DNA of 64,000 nt, from sequence record MZ956761.1, one strand, 5' to 3'. Positions 8,747 to 62,092 of the stretch are shown piece by piece; the stretch's first letter is position 1; every line of letters begins with the position of its first letter. Under the pieces are notes generated by a model. The model was given only the letters and a program-made list of their open reading frames with translations, made no database searches and had not been told where the DNA came from. A program made the position numbers and the translations under genes. The stretch is from a phage.

Positions 8747-8776
8747 GTTTACACGGGGTTTTAGTAGTGATACTAT
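8747..8776 (+). promoter_or_regulatory. Early promoter, copy 2 of repeated cassette
   Basis: Near-identical to 8405-8452: aatttcacaaagttgtttac...gtgatactattacc. Confidence 0.55.
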
Positions 8777-8812
8777 TACCCTATCAAAACAAATGTGAGA
8801 TTGGAGAATAAA

Positions 8813-9046
8813 ATGAAAACTTATCAAGAATTTATTGCTGAAACTGCTGATGTAAAAGTTGAGTTTATTTATACTGACAAGAAAGATAAAATGGGTGAAA
8901 TGCCTCATGGAGTTCTTCGCGATGCATTAGATAATTTCGGTCAACTCGCTGCAGAAGATTACGGTGATAAAATTGTTGTTACTGGTCCTGCTGCAGTTAT
9001 TGAAAAATGGGCAGCAGAAAATAAATCAATTTTTCGTAAAAAATAA
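8813..9046 (+). CDS. Internal protein (IPI-locus type), CTS MKTYQEFIAE
   Basis: 77 aa from ATG 8813 (RBS GGAGAA); exact T4 internal-protein N-terminal decapeptide. Confidence 0.6.
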   Translation: MKTYQEFIAETADVKVEFIYTDKKDKMGEMPHGVLRDALDNFGQLAAEDYGDKIVVTGPAAVIEKWAAENKSIFRKK

Positions 9047-9076
9047 GTTTACTTTTAGATAGGGTAGTGATACTAT
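9047..9076 (+). promoter_or_regulatory. Early promoter, copy 3 of repeated cassette
   Basis: GTTTAC 9047-9052, TACTAT 9071-9076; -10 flanked by 9-bp dyad GATAGGGTA/TACCCTATC. Confidence 0.55.
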
Positions 9077-9104
9077 TACCCTATCAACTACTGAGGAGAA
9101 TAAA

Positions 9105-10088: not shown

Positions 10089-10161
10089 TGGGAATTAGCC
10101 AAGTTGGTAAGGCATAGCACTTTGACTGCTAGATGCAAAGGTTCGAGTCCTTTATTCCCAG
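10089..10161 (+). tRNA. tRNA-Gln (UUG)
   Basis: Acceptor tgggaat/attccca, T-loop ttcgagt, anticodon loop cTTTGAc. Confidence 0.85.
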
Positions 10162-10162
10162 C

Positions 10163-10249
10163 GCGAGAATGGTCAAATTGGTAAAGGCACAGCACTTAAA
10201 ATGCTGCGGAATGATTTCCTTGTGGGTTCGAGTCCCACTTCTCGCACCA
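10163..10249 (+). tRNA. tRNA-Leu (UAA), type II, CCA encoded
   Basis: Acceptor gcgagaa/ttctcgc, anticodon loop cTTAAAa, long variable arm. Confidence 0.85.
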
Positions 10250-10254
10250 AATTT

Positions 10255-10328
<74 letters not shown>

Positions 10329-10338
10329 ATTTAATCTA

Positions 10339-10412
10339 CTCCGTGTAGCTCAGTTTGGTAGAGCGCCTGATTTGGGATCAGGAGGTCCAAGGTTCAAATC
10401 CTTGTATGGAGA
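10339..10412 (+). tRNA. tRNA-Pro (UGG)
   Basis: Acceptor ctccgtg/tatggag (two G-U), anticodon loop tTTGGGa. Confidence 0.8.
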
Positions 10413-10414
10413 CT

Positions 10415-10504
10415 GGAGGCGTGGCAGAGTGGTTTAATGCACCGGTCTTGAAAACCGGCAGTCGCTCCGGCGACTCATAGGTTCAAATCCTATCGCCTCC
10501 GCCA
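10415..10504 (+). tRNA. tRNA-Ser (UGA), type II, CCA encoded
   Basis: Acceptor ggaggcg/cgcctcc, anticodon loop cTTGAAa, long variable arm. Confidence 0.85.
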
Positions 10505-10509
10505 GTTTT

Positions 10510-10585
10510 GCTGATTTAGCTCAGTAGGTAGAGCAACTCACTTGTAATGAGAAGGTCGGCGGTTCGATTCCGTCAATCAGCACCA
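10510..10585 (+). tRNA. tRNA-Thr (UGU), CCA encoded
   Basis: Acceptor gctgatt/aatcagc, anticodon loop cTTGTAa. Confidence 0.85.
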
Positions 10586-10586
10586 A

Positions 10587-10661
10587 GGCCCTGTAGCTGG
10601 AAGGTTCAAGCAAGCGACTCATAATCGCCAGATGGTGGTTCAATTCCACCCAGGGCCACCA
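10587..10661 (+). tRNA. tRNA with CAU anticodon (Ile by analogy with T4; Met not excluded)
   Basis: Acceptor ggccctg/cagggcc, anticodon loop cTCATAa. Confidence 0.8.
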
Positions 10662-10674
10662 AATTAAGAATTAA

Positions 10675-10761
10675 GGGGAGTTATCCCGTAGAGGTAGCGG
10701 TGTGGACTGTAAATCCATTGTCATTGCGACTCGGGTGGTTCGACTCCATCACTCCCCACCA
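10675..10761 (+). tRNA. tRNA-Tyr (GUA), type II, CCA encoded
   Basis: Acceptor ggggagt/actcccc, anticodon loop cTGTAAa, variable arm resembling bacterial tRNA-Tyr. Confidence 0.75.
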
Positions 10762-10765
10762 ATTT

Positions 10766-10840
10766 GGATGTGTAGCTCAATGGCAGAGCGATCGCCTGTT
10801 AAGCGATTGGTTATAGGTTCGAATCCTATCACGTCCGCCA
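10766..10840 (+). tRNA. tRNA-Asn (GUU), CCA encoded
   Basis: Acceptor ggatgtg/cacgtcc, anticodon stem atcgc/gcgat, loop cTGTTAa. Confidence 0.8.
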
Positions 10841-10954
10841 AATTTGTGACAACTGTCACATTAATATCTACTTGACGCGATTATAGGGGTTGAACTGATC
10901 ACTCTTCTCTTAATTTCGTGTGAAGACATCTTGATTGTTGGAGTAGGTATTAAT
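10841..10954 (+). ncRNA. Inter-tRNA spacer, possible small stable RNA
   Basis: 114-nt segment between tRNA-Asn and tRNA-His with hairpin tgtgac-aact-gtcaca at 10845-10860; tRNA processing would release it. Confidence 0.25.
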
Positions 10955-11030
10955 GTGGCCGTAGTTCAGTTGGTAGAACTCGAGATTGTGATTCTCGTAG
11001 TCATGGGTTCGACTCCCATCGGTCACCCCA
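10955..11030 (+). tRNA. tRNA-His (GUG), CCA encoded
   Basis: Acceptor gtggccg/cggtcac, anticodon stem cgaga/tctcg, loop tTGTGAt. Confidence 0.8.
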
Positions 11031-11034
11031 ATTA

Positions 11035-11110
11035 CGGGGCATAGCTCAGAAGGAAGAGCAAGGACCTTCTAAGTCCTAGGTCGTAGGTTCGATCCCTACT
11101 GCCTCGACCA
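11035..11110 (+). tRNA. tRNA-Arg (UCU), CCA encoded
   Basis: Acceptor cggggca/tgcctcg, anticodon loop cTTCTAa. Confidence 0.85.
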
Positions 11111-11126: not shown

Positions 11127-11477
11127 ATGAAAGGTAATGTTTATTTAGTAGTTCATGATTTAACATTCTATTTTAATCATAATGACACTGTTATTTCTGA
11201 ACGTGTAATTAATTTGCTTTATCAGCACGCAGATTATGTTTATGTCGAAAACGAATATGGTCATTGGCAATTTCTTAAAAATCGTTCATTTGGCTTAGAT
11301 GGTTACGAATACTTTGAACGTAAAGACCTTTTAGATAAAATTCCGTTATCTACACAATATCAAAATCACAAATCTTTATATAAATGCCGACCAATTCGAA
11401 ATGTTGAATCCGCGTATGAAGCAATTGATTTATGGCGTAAACGCCGTGAACAGATTGATGCTTTAAAAGAATATTAA
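11127..11477 (+). CDS. Hypothetical protein
   Basis: 116 aa ORF 17 nt after tRNA-Arg; RBS GAGGAAAA. Confidence 0.5.
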   Translation: MKGNVYLVVHDLTFYFNHNDTVISERVINLLYQHADYVYVENEYGHWQFLKNRSFGLDGYEYFERKDLLDKIPLSTQYQNHKSLYKCRPIRNVESAYEAIDLWRKRREQIDALKEY

Positions 11478-11579
11478 GAAACCGGGTCGCTACCGGTAAG
11501 TCGTCGGACTGATGTTCCCTGAGTAAGGAATTGTGTTAATAAATCTTTATGATTTGTTGATGCCCTCTTACATCACAGC

Positions 11580-11750
11580 AGAAACGGCGCACCGAATTAT
11601 CGATTCGAGGAAATATCTTTGCCATAAGCCGAGTAGCGTTTTTGACGGAACGTTCGGATATGGTCGAGATATGGCCTTTTAAAAATATTGAGTAGCGTCA
11701 ACTACTTAATAACCGGGTTCGAATCCCGGCGTTTCGTACAAACACTTGCC
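11580..11750 (+). ncRNA. Candidate structured RNA with tRNA-like T-arm and acceptor-like pairing
   Basis: ccggg-ttcgaat-cccgg T-arm at 11722-11738; cgtttcg can pair with gaaacg at 11584-11589; several hairpins; no long ORF. Confidence 0.3.
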
Positions 11751-11788
11751 TTAGCAGGTGGAACCCCGACAAGGTTGCCGCAAGGCTT

Positions 11789-11816
11789 AGCCCCGACCGA
11801 AAGGTTGGGGCTTTTT
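11789..11816 (+). terminator. Rho-independent terminator
   Basis: agccccgacc-gaaa-ggttggggct hairpin followed by TTTTT. Confidence 0.7.
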
Positions 11817-11862
11817 AGTATAAATAAGTATATTAAAACCACGAATTAAAACAGGAAATAAG

Positions 11863-12336
11863 ATGAAATCATATGCTCAATTTTTAAATGAAGCGGTGTT
11901 AAATGAAGCATCTAGCACCGAAATTCAAGCTGTTGCAAAAGCTGCCATTGCCGCGGGTAAATATTCCTATAAGGATGCTTCCGATGAATCACGATTCCAA
12001 TTTGCTCGTGATATGAAAGCCGAAGGATTTACAGGGAATGCAGTTAGTATGGCTTGGAAAAGTTTAGTTGCTACTGGAGCTGCTTTTGCAAAGGCTTCAG
12101 GTAAACCTGCTCCTAAGGCTGACCCTAAAGCAGCACAAGAAAAAAATATTGCTAAAGGAATTATCTCTAGGTATGAAGCAATTCTTAAAGAACTTTTGAT
12201 AATTAAGACCGAAGGCCAGAAACTTGCGCGAGCTCATAGTTTCAAAGATAATCCACATGCTCATGACCTAGAGTATGTTGAAGACATCCAAAAAATTATT
12301 AAAGACCGCATTTGGTCTGCTAAACAAATCAAATAA
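11863..12336 (+). CDS. Hypothetical protein with CTS-like N-terminus (MKSYAQFLNE)
   Basis: 157 aa; RBS AGGAAA; Ala/Lys-rich; N-terminal decapeptide resembles capsid targeting sequence. Confidence 0.5.
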   Translation: MKSYAQFLNEAVLNEASSTEIQAVAKAAIAAGKYSYKDASDESRFQFARDMKAEGFTGNAVSMAWKSLVATGAAFAKASGKPAPKADPKAAQEKNIAKGIISRYEAILKELLIIKTEGQKLARAHSFKDNPHAHDLEYVEDIQKIIKDRIWSAKQIK

Positions 12337-12343
12337 CATTCTT

Positions 12344-12371
12344 AGCCCCGACCGAAAGGTTGGGGCTTTTT
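12344..12371 (+). terminator. Rho-independent terminator (same sequence as 11789-11816)
   Basis: Identical hairpin plus T-tract. Confidence 0.7.
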
Positions 12372-12503
12372 GGTATCTAGGCCTTTCCGGGCCTCTCTAG
12401 GCATCATTTAGTTTATACCCTTTATAATATATTATCCTACCTTTTAATTGCCCCTCCTGACCCTAGAATTCCCTAAAAATTTTTAAAATTTTTTCACAAA
12501 ACG

Positions 12504-12533
12504 GTTTACATCCCCGTTCTTCCATGGTACTAT
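12504..12533 (+). promoter_or_regulatory. Early promoter (GTTTAC-N18-TACTAT)
   Basis: Shares tttttcacaaaac...ggtactatacaactatcaact with promoters at 24156, 27913, 29352, 54378. Confidence 0.55.
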
Positions 12534-12576: not shown

Positions 12577-12840
12577 ATGGATAATTACGGCGAACTGTTC
12601 AACTTCTTTATGAAATGCGTTTCAGAAGATTTCGGTCGTACAGTGAATGATATTAAAGTTATCGGTCCTGATCATCCGATGTTTGAAACTTACGCAGTAA
12701 TGGGTAATGAAGATGGTCAGTGGTATACTGTAAAGGTTGTGATTAATATGTTCACGGCAGAAGGTTATGTTAAACTGTCTTCTAAAGTTTACCATGATAA
12801 CGATGAAATCGCAGAAGAATATTTCAATAATATGAAATAA
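12577..12840 (+). CDS. Hypothetical protein
   Basis: 87 aa from ATG 12577 (RBS GGAGAA); track start 12565 is TTG. Confidence 0.5.
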   Translation: MDNYGELFNFFMKCVSEDFGRTVNDIKVIGPDHPMFETYAVMGNEDGQWYTVKVVINMFTAEGYVKLSSKVYHDNDEIAEEYFNNMK

Positions 12841-12842
12841 TT

Positions 12843-12872
12843 GTGTACAAACACCAAGGACGGTGTTATTAT
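12843..12872 (+). promoter_or_regulatory. Early promoter variant (GTGTAC-N18-TATTAT)
   Basis: Followed by 26-bp element tgttattatagacttatcaaaacaaa also found at 60933. Confidence 0.4.
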
Positions 12873-12908
12873 AGACTTATCAAAACAAATACAGAAACGG
12901 AGAAATAA

Positions 12909-13073
12909 ATGACTACTTTAATTATTTGGTTTGACGAAAATGAAGAAACATACTGCGTGAACATTGGCGAAAGCCCAATGCCAGAATTTGAATCTTCGGA
13001 TAAAAACTCGGTTGTATCTTGGGCTGAAGGTTATAAAGCAGCAAAAGGCGATGTTGAAATAGTTTACAACTAA
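12909..13073 (+). CDS. Small hypothetical protein (54 aa)
   Basis: ATG 12909 after RBS-like GGAGAAATAA; below track length cut-off. Confidence 0.35.
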   Translation: MTTLIIWFDENEETYCVNIGESPMPEFESSDKNSVVSWAEGYKAAKGDVEIVYN

Positions 13074-13091
13074 GTATGAAGGCGTTACTAT
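13062..13091 (+). promoter_or_regulatory. Early promoter (GTTTAC-N18-TACTAT)
   Basis: Overlaps 3' end of preceding small ORF; followed by tagacttatc motif. Confidence 0.45.
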
Positions 13092-16983: not shown

Positions 16984-17301
16984 ATGAAAACGTATAAAGA
17001 ATTTATTGCAGAATCTGCTGCAGGACAACGTGTAGAAGGCGGTTATATCTGGATTGAACAAGTTGAGCCGCCGAGTCGCACTTCTACGGGTAAATGGAAA
17101 ATCACTGTTGATGGTCCTGGTGGTAAACGTAGGACTCTTAAAGAAATTAACGGGTACTATGAAGAAGCTCTTTCTGACGCGGGTACTTATATGATGCAAA
17201 TCATGATTAAAAACCCAGAAAATCGTTTTGCGGCTAGAGTTTTCCGCCGTATTGGAAATAAGCTTTATGATGCATATTCTAAAAACTTTCCTAAAGAATA
17301 A
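16984..17301 (+). CDS. Internal protein (CTS MKTYKEFIAE)
   Basis: 105 aa; CTS-type N-terminus with I-A-E site; IPII/IPIII locus position. Confidence 0.6.
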   Translation: MKTYKEFIAESAAGQRVEGGYIWIEQVEPPSRTSTGKWKITVDGPGGKRRTLKEINGYYEEALSDAGTYMMQIMIKNPENRFAARVFRRIGNKLYDAYSKNFPKE

Positions 17302-17317
17302 AAATTAAAGGATACAC

Positions 17318-17791
17318 ATGAAAACATATCAAGAATTTATTACTGAAGCAGCTATTAATTCTCAAATTATTGCTGAATCTTTTACTGATCTTTTGAAATT
17401 TAAAAAAGGTCAAAAAATCACTGCTGTATTGGATGATGGTACAGAAGTTGAGATGGATGTACAGGGATATAATTATGCAGTAGATGGAAAACTGTATAAT
17501 AAATCTCATGCTAAATTTGATTCATTTGACGACTTTGTTAATACAGTTGAAGATGAAAAAACTCGTAGATCCATTGCAACTGGTGATGCTAAGGTTCTTA
17601 TGGCACATGGTCATGAACGCATTCGCGCTAAACAGAATAAAATGGGTGAAGATAATTTTGCATTAGTTGGTTATCAATCTGGTAAACAAACTTATGGCTA
17701 TCAGCGTACTGCTACCATGTATAACAAAAATGGTAAAATCGCTTTCGTGAATAGCAAAGGCTCTATTCAGTACGTCAAATCATTCAAATAA
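17318..17791 (+). CDS. Internal protein (CTS MKTYQEFITE)
   Basis: 157 aa; CTS-type N-terminus. Confidence 0.6.
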   Translation: MKTYQEFITEAAINSQIIAESFTDLLKFKKGQKITAVLDDGTEVEMDVQGYNYAVDGKLYNKSHAKFDSFDDFVNTVEDEKTRRSIATGDAKVLMAHGHERIRAKQNKMGEDNFALVGYQSGKQTYGYQRTATMYNKNGKIAFVNSKGSIQYVKSFK

Positions 17792-46248: not shown

Positions 46249-47933
46249 AGAATTTTAAACTAAACCGAGTTAGGTATCAAAATATAATGTCAGTAGGTGG
46301 AAATCCTATTGACATTCAACTAGATAAGGTTCAAAAAACTCTTATTACTGGACGAAATGGCGGTGGTAAGTCTACTATGTTAGAAGCCATCACATTTGGG
46401 CTTTTTGGCAAGCCATTTCGTGATGTAAAGAAAGGTCAATTAATAAACAGCACAAATAAGAAAGAACTTTTAGTTGAACTGTGGATGGAATATGATGAGA
46501 AAAAGTACTATATCAAAAGAGGACAAAAACCAAACGTTTTCGAAATCACCGTTAACGGTACACGTCTTAATGAATCTGCCAGCAGTAAAGATTTCCAAGC
46601 AGAATTTGAACAGCTTATCGGAATGTCATATGCCAGTTTCAAGCAGATTGTTGTCCTTGGTACAGCAGGGTATACCCCTTTCATGGGTTTGTCGACCCCT
46701 GCACGAAGAAAGCTTGTGGAAGACCTGCTCGAGGTAGGAACATTAGCTGAAATGGATAAGCTTAATAAAGCACTAATACGTGAATTAAATTCACAAAACC
46801 AAGTGCTTGATGTTAAAAAAGATAGTATTATCCAACAAATTAAAATATATAATGATAACGTTGAACGCCAGAAAAAATTAACTGGTGATAACCTTACTCG
46901 TCTACAGAATATGTATGATGATTTGGCAAAAGAAGCTAGAACGTTAAAATCGGAAATAGAAGAAGCTAATGAAAGATTAGTTAATATTGTTTTGGATGAA
47001 GACCCGACTGATGCATTTAATAAAATCGGTCAAGAAGCATTTTTAATTAAATCAAAAATTGACTCGTATAATAAAGTCATTAATATGTATCACGAAGGTG
47101 GATTATGTCCAACCTGTTTGTCACAATTAAGTTCCGGTGATAAAGTTGTTTCTAAAATTAAAGATAAAGTTTCTGAATGCACGCATTCGTTTGAACAGCT
47201 TTCAACNCNNCNNGNNNNNNNNNNAGTATNTCGTTNNTNANTNNNGNGATNNTNNNAANNNCNANNNGTNNGTTGCTTGCNNNTNNTNTGTNNCNNTNNA
47301 AANCANTNNNTNNNCACGACTGTAGATAAAGCTAAAANAGTTAAAGCAGCTATAGAANAAGCATCATCTGAGTTTATTGNCCATGCTGATNAAATNGCNC
47401 TGCTTNAAGANGAACTTGATAAAATTGTTAAGNCAAANACTAATTTNNTAATGGAAAAATNCCACNGAGGAATTTTGACTGATATGCTCAAAGATTCTGG
47501 TATTAANGGTGCTATTATTAAAAAGTACATTCCATTATTTAATAAGCAGATTAACCATTATCTTAAAATAATGGAAGCGGATTATGTGTTTACATTAGAT
47601 GAAGAATTTAATGAGACAATTAAATCCCGTGGTCGTGAAGATTTTAGTTATGCTTCATTCAGTCAAGGCGAAAAAGCACGAATTGATATTGCTCTTCTAT
47701 TTACTTGGCGTGATATTGCTGAAAAAGTTTCAGGTGTTAAAATAAACACACTAATTCTCGATGAAGTTTTTGATTCAGCAACTGATGTTGAAGGTGTAAA
47801 AGCTATTTCAACTATTTTAGATAGTTTAAAAAATACTAATGTTTTTGTTATTTCACATAGAGACCACGACCCGCAAGCATATGGTCAGCATCTTCAAATG
47901 AAGAAAGTTGGTCGATTTACTGTAATGGTTTAA
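46245..47933 (+). CDS. 46: Recombination ATPase subunit gp46 (Rad50/SbcC-like)
   Basis: 562 aa; Walker A GRNGGGKST, central coiled coil, C-terminal signature region; interior partly masked by n. Confidence 0.9.
   Translation: MKNFKLNRVRYQNIMSVGGNPIDIQLDKVQKTLITGRNGGGKSTMLEAITFGLFGKPFRDVKKGQLINSTNKKELLVELWMEYDEKKYYIKRGQKPNVFEITVNGTRLNESASSKDFQAEFEQLIGMSYASFKQIVVLGTAGYTPFMGLSTPARRKLVEDLLEVGTLAEMDKLNKALIRELNSQNQVLDVKKDSIIQQIKIYNDNVERQKKLTGDNLTRLQNMYDDLAKEARTLKSEIEEANERLVNIVLDEDPTDAFNKIGQEAFLIKSKIDSYNKVINMYHEGGLCPTCLSQLSSGDKVVSKIKDKVSECTHSFEQLSXXXXXXXVXRXXXXXXXXXXXXXCLXXXCXXXXXXXXTTVDKAKXVKAAIEXASSEFIXHADXXXLLXXELDKIVKXXTNXXMEKXHXGILTDMLKDSGIXGAIIKKYIPLFNKQINHYLKIMEADYVFTLDEEFNETIKSRGREDFSYASFSQGEKARIDIALLFTWRDIAEKVSGVKINTLILDEVFDSATDVEGVKAISTILDSLKNTNVFVISHRDHDPQAYGQHLQMKKVGRFTVMV
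47207..47466. other. Stretch of partly ambiguous bases (n) inside gene 46
   Basis: n interleaved with called bases; translation gives X runs. Confidence 0.9.
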
Positions 47934-61927: not shown

Positions 61928-62092
61928 ATGAAAACATATAAAGAATTTATTAAAGAAGATATGGTCGCTGGAGATTCAGGTGGTAATCCTGAAAATATCT
62001 CCACTGGAACAACGTCAGGCGCTGTAGTAAATAAAGGTCCTGAACAGATTCCTAAAAAGAAAAAAGAGGAATCTAAAGAAAAAGAAGAGTAA
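61928..62092 (+). CDS. Small protein with CTS-like N-terminus (MKTYKEFIKE)
   Basis: 54 aa; after I-K-E the rest is Gly/Lys/Glu-rich. Confidence 0.4.
   Translation: MKTYKEFIKEDMVAGDSGGNPENISTGTTSGAVVNKGPEQIPKKKKEESKEKEE

Follow-up and report, generated by a model that had tools for sequence, protein, structure and literature searches.

The internal proteins of T-even phages (Ips; Ip1–3 and Ip4–13) carry an N-terminal capsid targeting sequence (CTS) of about 10 residues with aromatic residues at positions 4 and 7, are processed by the prohead protease gp21 and are injected. For the CTS of IPIII, amber-suppressor work as reviewed attributes targeting mainly to residues 4 and 7, and gp21 processing to residues 8 and 10 (PMC9026906). 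Each of the T4 proteins Ip1, Ip2 and Ip3 inhibits a different GmrSD-type restriction enzyme, and the authors expect the other Ips of "the two Ip loci" to act likewise (PMC12373910). At the polymorphic ipI locus of T-even phages, as later papers summarize Repoila et al. (1994; via PMC9026906, PMC12373910), alternative CTS genes occupy a single site. Regulatory repeats provide a second point of comparison. Repeats made of a promoter and a stem-loop (PeSLs) flank accessory ORFs, mark the boundaries of insertions and deletions, and yield excised mini-circles (PMC2839356; PMC4122927). T4 itself recombines efficiently at short homologies, giving both deletions and amplifications (PMC9391042).

We analyzed 64,000 nucleotides of phage DNA, one strand of record MZ956761.1, referred to throughout as the window. 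The phage is a Tequatrovirus, and the stretch that was compared is 100% identical to Escherichia phage ADUt. On balance, we think it probable that the site between the stable RNA gene rnaC and gene e.8 holds an unannotated internal-protein gene at a third Ip locus, and that this gene is turned over by recombination at terminator repeats in a PeSL-like manner. The variable site has the tRNA/rnaD/rnaC operon on its left and e.8 on its right, and a cluster of 11 tRNAs (10089–11110) lies a little upstream of the cassette. Because the Rfam models matched tRNAs only, and neither rnaC nor rnaD, in the window, these two genes were placed through their homology to T4. The features of the site are as follows:

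11477..11593, plus strand: rnaD (species 2 stable RNA), located by BLASTN of T4 rnaD at 94% identity; annotated in Aplg8 and T4
11600..11738, plus strand: rnaC (species 1 stable RNA), the last gene of the operon, located by BLASTN of T4 rnaC at 98.6% over 139 nt
11787..11816, plus strand: left copy of the repeat T1 (hairpin 11789–11812), the predicted intrinsic terminator of the tRNA/rnaC operon
11819..11826, plus strand: late promoter motif of T4 type, TATAAATA, read from the sequence; annotated as a late promoter in SA20RB
11853..11858, plus strand: Shine-Dalgarno sequence AGGAAA, read from the sequence
11863..12336, plus strand: ORF157, candidate internal (injected) head protein of 157 amino acids
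11863..11892, plus strand: predicted CTS of ORF157, codons 1–10
12342..12371, plus strand: right copy of T1 (hairpin 12344–12367), the predicted terminator of the ORF157 late transcript
12505..12533, plus strand: early-type promoter of e.8, TTTACA-17-TACTAT; annotated as an early promoter in SA20RB and fPS-2
12577..12840, plus strand: e.8, the conserved neighbor to the right of the variable site

The cassette thus runs in the order T1, late promoter, Shine-Dalgarno sequence, ORF157, T1. The TATAAATA motif sits 36 nt 5′ of the ORF157 start codon (ATG) and is kept in every Tequatrovirus locus with ORF157 that was examined. Judged by these signals, the cassette is a self-contained late transcription unit, insulated at both ends. 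The left T1 would terminate the RNA operon, and the right T1 would terminate the late transcript and shield e.8, whose early promoter lies 134 nt 3′ of the right T1 and outside the repeat. Late expression of ORF157 is suggested by the promoter motif, together with an upstream terminator against read-through. Two further observations concern the window at large. A second indel relative to T4 lies just beyond e.8, at 12853–13073: an ORF of 54 amino acids (12909–13073) is present in the window, T2, RB14 and others, is absent from T4, and has early-promoter-like sites on either side (12844–12872 and 13063–13091). At 47207–47507 the window contains many non-ACGT characters, probably the result of masking or assembly ambiguity.

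The initial annotation had reported that ORF 11863–12336 is bracketed by two identical 28-nt terminators, with the repeated sequence at 11787–11816 and 12342–12371. The two copies are indeed identical and bracket the ORF, and their reading as terminators holds, given the hairpin and the U5 tract; the identical stretch, in contrast, is 30 nt long. T1 (TTAGCCCCGACCGAAAGGTTGGGGCTTTTT) occurs in exactly two copies in the 64-kb window, both on the plus strand and with no mismatches. No further site was found in the window at up to three mismatches, and a scan of 100 shuffled sequences for the T1 string gave no match. If one mismatch is allowed, the direct repeat extends to 36 nt (11786–11821 vs. 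12341–12376), and its end overlaps the first bases of the late promoter motif. Each copy folds (−20.3 kcal/mol; z about −3.8) into a 10-bp stem, seven of whose pairs are G-C, capped by GAAA and trailed by U5, i.e., a G+C-rich hairpin with a U tract behind it, as in rho-independent terminators. T1 is carried as an annotated terminator in four independent records. Among the nine terminator-like hairpins of the window, only the two T1 copies have sequence in common; the other seven are unrelated.

To see whether the cassette is present or replaced between the repeats, the initial annotation had proposed an alignment across related phages. We compared the site in 27 loci, with IMG/VR giving 9 loci, and the predicted variation at the terminators was seen. 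Between rnaC and e.8, T4 carries just one T1, and it differs from the window by a single clean 555-nt gap, with flanks 91–98% identical. The states of the site were:

Empty (T1): T4, T2, Sf24, BCPSen_003 and pSe_SNUABM_01
A (T1-Plate-ORF157-T1): the window, Aplg8, SA20RB, fPS-2 and fD1
B (T1-ORF187-T2): HY03, CT01, Shfl2 and RB14
A+B (T1-ORF157-T1-ORF187-T2): PinkRuby, vB_SsoM_113, two IMG/VR contigs, and the Mosigvirus phages PhAPEC2 and phiE142
A-C (ORF157, then the non-CTS ORF184): Dhakavirus and GRNsp7

T6 carries a single T1 copy, which is compatible with either the Empty or an ORF187-only state. Across the collection, as counted from BLAST totals and evenly spaced samples of rows, full-length ORF157 is encoded in 468 phage records and ORF187 in 165. 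T1-like matches were found at 1166 places in 697 phage records, so that about 469 records have two copies. With about 469 two-copy records against 468 ORF157 records, the duplication of T1 tracks ORF157 nearly one to one.

The Empty alleles are informative about how these states arise. Every one of them has a single T1, in which the left flank of the left copy is joined to the right flank of the right copy. They occur on at least three right-flank haplotypes (ccagacc, ccgggcc and ctggacc), each of which is also found in filled alleles. On both flank trees (neighbor-joining trees of 25 loci, short and of low resolution), the different cassette states are interspersed; this pattern suggests recurrent change or frequent reassortment, and the trees are too crude to yield a count of events. 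The two T1 copies of a genome also tend to share their variants: both read GCCCCGACC in most Tequatroviruses, GCCCCAGCC in PinkRuby and GCCCCTTCC in Mosigvirus PhAPEC2, and both have the compensatory GGCCC...GGGCC in three Dhakavirus-type loci, whereas hybrid pairs occur in evident recombinants. Since T1 pairs share variants while ORF157 has diverged to 73–77% identity between the genera, the copies appear to interact, through gene conversion or repeated re-duplication. Taken together, genome comparison points to recombination at T1. A drop in identity between PhAPEC2 and PinkRuby at the left T1 was considered as a decisive breakpoint and rejected, because an RNA gene under strong constraint ends at that very point.

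These patterns also bear on a simpler history, in which the T1 copies are no more than working terminators that stem from a single ancient tandem duplication, one old deletion, or a few, spread through ordinary homologous recombination in the flanks, possibly aided by SegB-type co-conversion, and the repeats have no ongoing role. Such a history accounts well for the age of the unit, as ORF157 is orthologous at this site in Tequatrovirus, Mosigvirus and Dhakavirus, behind a T1-like hairpin and late promoter in each genus. The conserved flanks in rnaC and e.8, which are 90–100% identical over hundreds of bases, and the SegB-like genes found 0.4–1 kb upstream in several relatives are also in keeping with it, as is the difference of 1–2 nt between the T1 copies of several genomes. 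We nevertheless regard it as unlikely: it does not anticipate that every Empty allele retains exactly one T1 with the outer flanks of both copies, nor that such alleles sit on three or more right-flank haplotypes, and it would have to invoke conversion or re-duplication for the genus- and strain-specific variants, including a compensatory pair, that appear in both copies.

At the opposite extreme, the unit could be a site-specific mobile element whose T1 hairpin is recognized by a dedicated recombinase or nuclease. The conservation of the hairpin and the likeness of its two copies would fit this proposal, and for PeSLs, Arbiol et al. have speculated about a protein that binds the stem-loop (PMC2839356). 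However, the cassette encodes ORF157 alone, a helical protein of 157 amino acids without a nuclease or recombinase signature; T1 is present in just two copies in 64 kb; and T4's own recombination suffices at short homologies (PMC9391042). We consider a dedicated enzyme highly improbable.

The reading that we prefer is turnover by recombination between the T1 repeats. In a highly recombinogenic phage, this pair of terminators, a direct repeat of 30–36 nt, would double as a set of breakpoints for gene turnover. Exchange between the two copies would remove the 555-nt unit and leave one T1 behind, as in T4 and T2, and the excised circle that we infer could re-enter at any resident T1. Because ORF157 is orthologous at the site in three genera, it is most simply ancestral there, and the empty site of T4 probably reflects a deletion between T1 copies, which is likelier than a gain in the phage of the window. 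The initial proposal that the cassette was gained, or is exchangeable, by recombination between terminators is therefore upheld for exchange, given the Empty, A, B and A+B alleles, and disfavored for gain, with loss in T4 and T2 the likelier event. When co-infecting phages exchange DNA, the long conserved flanks are a far better substrate than a 30-nt repeat; hence T1 may count mainly for deletion within a genome. Nearby homing endonucleases of SegB type may co-convert the site as well.

The protein encoded by the cassette is a candidate internal protein. The resemblance of its N-terminus, MKSYAQFLNE, to the internal-protein targeting sequence, as pointed out in the initial annotation, is borne out: it matches the T4 CTS at positions 4, 7, 8 and 10. 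In full, the N-terminus is MKSYAQFLNE|A in ORF157 and MKTYQEFIAE|A in T4 IPII and IPIII, an agreement at 5 of 10 CTS positions, while all four positions that the literature marks as important are kept (Y4, F7, L8 and E10). The gp21 motif (L/I)-x-E| is present as L8-N9-E10|A11, and a second LNE|A occurs at residues 13–15. Cleavage by gp21 is predicted after E10, and possibly after E15 too, so that the mature protein would start at Ala11 (AVLNEASSTEIQAVAK) or Ala16 (ASSTEIQAVAK). This mature part is basic (pI 9.4, 13% Lys). Three of the five other CTS-bearing proteins compared, i.e., two from the window and ORF187, are basic too. With a pN/pS of about 0.2 against three diverged homologs, ORF157 is a genuine gene on which purifying selection acts.

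Evidence on packaging comes from Yersinia phage fD1; the fPS-2 paper contains no proteomics. Its ORF157 ortholog, g140, is about 95% identical and was flagged as particle-associated (PPAP) by LC-MS/MS of purified virions; the specificity of this data set is low, with 113–137 of 277 gene products flagged as particle-associated, including DenV and lysozyme. The detection of g140 supports packaging of ORF157 without settling it. The low specificity leaves room for an account in which ORF157 is made late and stays unpackaged, its CTS likeness being a functionless leader from common ancestry and its detection in virions a carry-over. The agreement at just half of the CTS positions with T4 IPII and IPIII is in line with this account, as is the presence of a CTS-like leader, MKTYKEFIKE, on a 54-amino-acid ORF that lies upstream of the presumed primase gene and at no known Ip locus. 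Set against it are the retention of all four important positions together with the LxE|A cleavage motif, the canonical late promoter upstream, and a mature part that is basic and Lys-rich like the other basic CTS proteins of the window. Moreover, ORF157 has nothing but the CTS in common with ORF187 and with the remaining CTS-bearing ORFs in the window, a pattern described for Ips. We judge it improbable that ORF157 stays out of the virion.

Database and structure searches place ORF157 outside of families with a functional name. Pfam and NCBIfam returned no family for either ORF157 or ORF187, only sub-threshold noise, and ORF157 falls in PHROG 2280, which is labeled "unknown function". Its AlphaFold model (pLDDT 77) is all-helical, with a small N-terminal helical domain and a long helical hairpin; no structural relatives outside its own family were found in BFVD and the PDB. 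In sequence or fold, we found no likeness of ORF157 to anything of known function. The record rows examined label it "hypothetical protein" or something equally generic, and literature searches on the RB32/RB14 ORF names, or on rnaC with internal protein, returned nothing.

Three observations concern the modular make-up of ORF157. Between Mosigvirus and Tequatrovirus (locus L019, 1913–2377, vs. locus L007, 1184–1657), nucleotide identity is 52–75% in the N-terminal half and 85–90% in the C-terminal half. The N-terminal domain (about residues 15–80) also occurs in proteins of Klebsiella and Yersinia phages that have another C-terminal half. Finally, the metagenomic protein P0014, a chimera of 94 amino acids, combines an N-terminus resembling trna.3 with the C-terminal ~30 residues of ORF157, from which it follows that some phage probably lost the whole tRNA/rnaC region by deletion.

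ORF187, the alternative occupant of the site, begins with MKTYAEFLTE|A and, by BLASTP and hhalign, has the 10-residue CTS alone in common with ORF157. Both proteins match PHROG 2280 (E values of 1.6e-59 for ORF157 and 9.7e-54 for ORF187), which may be a merger caused by the common leader. Despite this joint PHROG, we do not claim that the two are paralogs. Two candidate links, P0010 and P0011 of Klebsiella and Yersinia phages, contain the ORF157 N-terminal domain and were rejected as bridges, having no significant similarity to ORF187. The gene is bounded by T1 on the left and by a different terminator, T2, on the right, and T2 has only GGGCTTTTT in common with T1. In place of the canonical TATAAATA it has (A/G)ATAAATA. 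ORF187 is 96–97% identical between Tequatrovirus and Mosigvirus, compared to about 73–77% for ORF157 between the same genera, which implies a recent lateral transfer of ORF187. We propose that it enters the locus via T1 on the left, with T2 and its common GGGCTTTTT on the right.

Smaller rearrangements are also seen within the site. ORF162 of CT01 (L005, 1219–1707) equals ORF187 (L007, 1783–2346) less 25 residues; 75 nt were lost between two copies of AAAATTTCTAAGAA, and by its sequence this loss is a small repeat-mediated deletion within the same locus. ORF184, which lacks a CTS, follows ORF157 in Dhakavirus and in one Tequatrovirus, GRNsp7. In the latter (L027, 1803–3000), a Dhakavirus-type right module, i.e., an ORF184-type gene and a GGCCC-type T1, sits beside a Tequatrovirus-type left T1, and the site is on this evidence an intergeneric mosaic. 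The T2 loop of phiE142 (L014, 2663–2687) is inverted, reading CTATC-ATTTA-GATAG vs. CTATC-TAAAT-GATAGG in all other loci (e.g., L007, 2355–2379), a flip of the hairpin loop.

Other CTS genes of the window merit description in their own right. ORF 8813–9046 (77 amino acids, starting with MKTYQEFIAE; PHROG 8111, "internal virion protein") is bracketed by an identical 24-nt direct repeat, GTAGTGATACTATTACCCTATCAA, whose copies at 8764–8787 and 9064–9087 lie 300 nt apart in early-promoter-like sequence. As far as its repeats indicate, this cassette is PeSL-style and parallels the terminator-bounded ORF157 cassette. The ipIII/ipII position holds two adjoining CTS genes, 16984–17301 (105 amino acids; PHROG 3966, unknown function) and 17318–17791 (157 amino acids; DUF7412; PHROG 3155, "internal virion protein"), both unlike T4 IPIII and IPII in length and sequence. 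The 54-amino-acid ORF with the MKTYKEFIKE leader (61928–62092; PHROG 1823, unknown function) lies directly upstream of a 342-amino-acid ORF, which we take to be the gene 61 primase by its zinc-finger N-terminus. Far from any Ip locus, this small ORF could be a packaged mini-protein or a sign that the leader alone is not diagnostic.

With packaging of ORF157 as the preferred reading, its life cycle can be modeled on that of the T-even Ips. Its synthesis would fall late in infection, and its 10-residue CTS would direct ORF157 to the core of the prohead. Once trimmed by gp21 behind Glu10 (LNE|A), the protein would enter the head along with the DNA and be injected when the phage infects its next host. 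Both gp21 processing and injection are expected by analogy with known Ips. In the new host, ORF157 would most likely disarm a first-line defense, our best guess being a GmrSD-type type IV restriction enzyme, by analogy with Ip1, Ip2 and Ip3 of T4. Our proposal for ORF157 and ORF187 is that both are injected to inhibit other defense variants. A bolder and more tentative synthesis, which we put forward as a possibility rather than an expectation, is that rnaC|e.8 is a third, unrecognized Ip locus of the Tevenvirinae, that ORF157 and ORF187 are new inhibitors, injected and each directed at a different variant of host type IV restriction or of another first-line defense, and that the T1 hairpins, homogenized by gene conversion, keep the locus fluid as a minimal, recombinase-free attachment site that releases and captures expression-ready circles of 0.55–0.7 kb.

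The locus matters for several reasons. The numerous further Ips are regarded as a reserve of injected anti-defense proteins still to be tapped, and this site contributes two widespread candidates, neither of which bears a functional name in the records that were examined. It would also add a third Ip site, which cannot be seen in T4, where the site is empty. With four natural alleles (empty, A, B and A+B) in near-isogenic backgrounds, material for host-range tests is already at hand. A terminator-only repeat with co-varying copies offers a compact case of short regulatory repeats driving gene turnover in T4-type phages, and the T1 cassette would extend the PeSL idea to late genes.

Two kinds of element that are already known, CTS internal proteins and cassettes bounded by regulatory repeats, meet at this site, and the ORF157 locus is a further example of them. 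ORF157 is like the T-even Ips in its CTS, with Y4, F7, (L/I)8 and E10|A, and in being small, basic, non-essential and, by its promoter motif, probably late. It resembles them further in having no similarity to other Ips past the CTS, in its patchy presence among close relatives, and, by the fD1 data set of low specificity, in the detection of an ortholog in virions. It is unlike the known T-even Ips in its position: rnaC|e.8 is a third locus, empty in T4, whereas the 2025 literature has "two Ip loci" (PMC12373910). In harboring alternative CTS genes, the site is like the ipI locus as that is summarized in later papers; it differs from the ipI locus of those summaries in lying at another genomic site and in having its breakpoints at terminator repeats. 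The single gene with its own promoter and terminator, placed between two conserved genes, also recalls the morons of lambdoid phages. Morons, however, are not thought to move by regulatory sequences (a contrast drawn in PMC2839356), whereas the terminators of the T1 cassette are its breakpoints. The closest parallel is with PeSLs (Arbiol 2010; Comeau 2014), in which short regulatory repeats likewise flank a single accessory ORF, with its own promoter and terminator, at the boundaries of indels and replacements; an excised circle is the natural prediction for the T1 cassette by this likeness. The differences are equally clear. A PeSL combines a strong sigma-70-like early promoter with a stem-loop in an element of ~100 bp, whereas T1 consists of a hairpin and T-run only and the gene that it flanks is driven by a late promoter. 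PeSLs are present in many dispersed copies in hyperplastic regions, as against two copies of T1 in 64 kb. The T1 repeat is PeSL-like in its action without being a PeSL.
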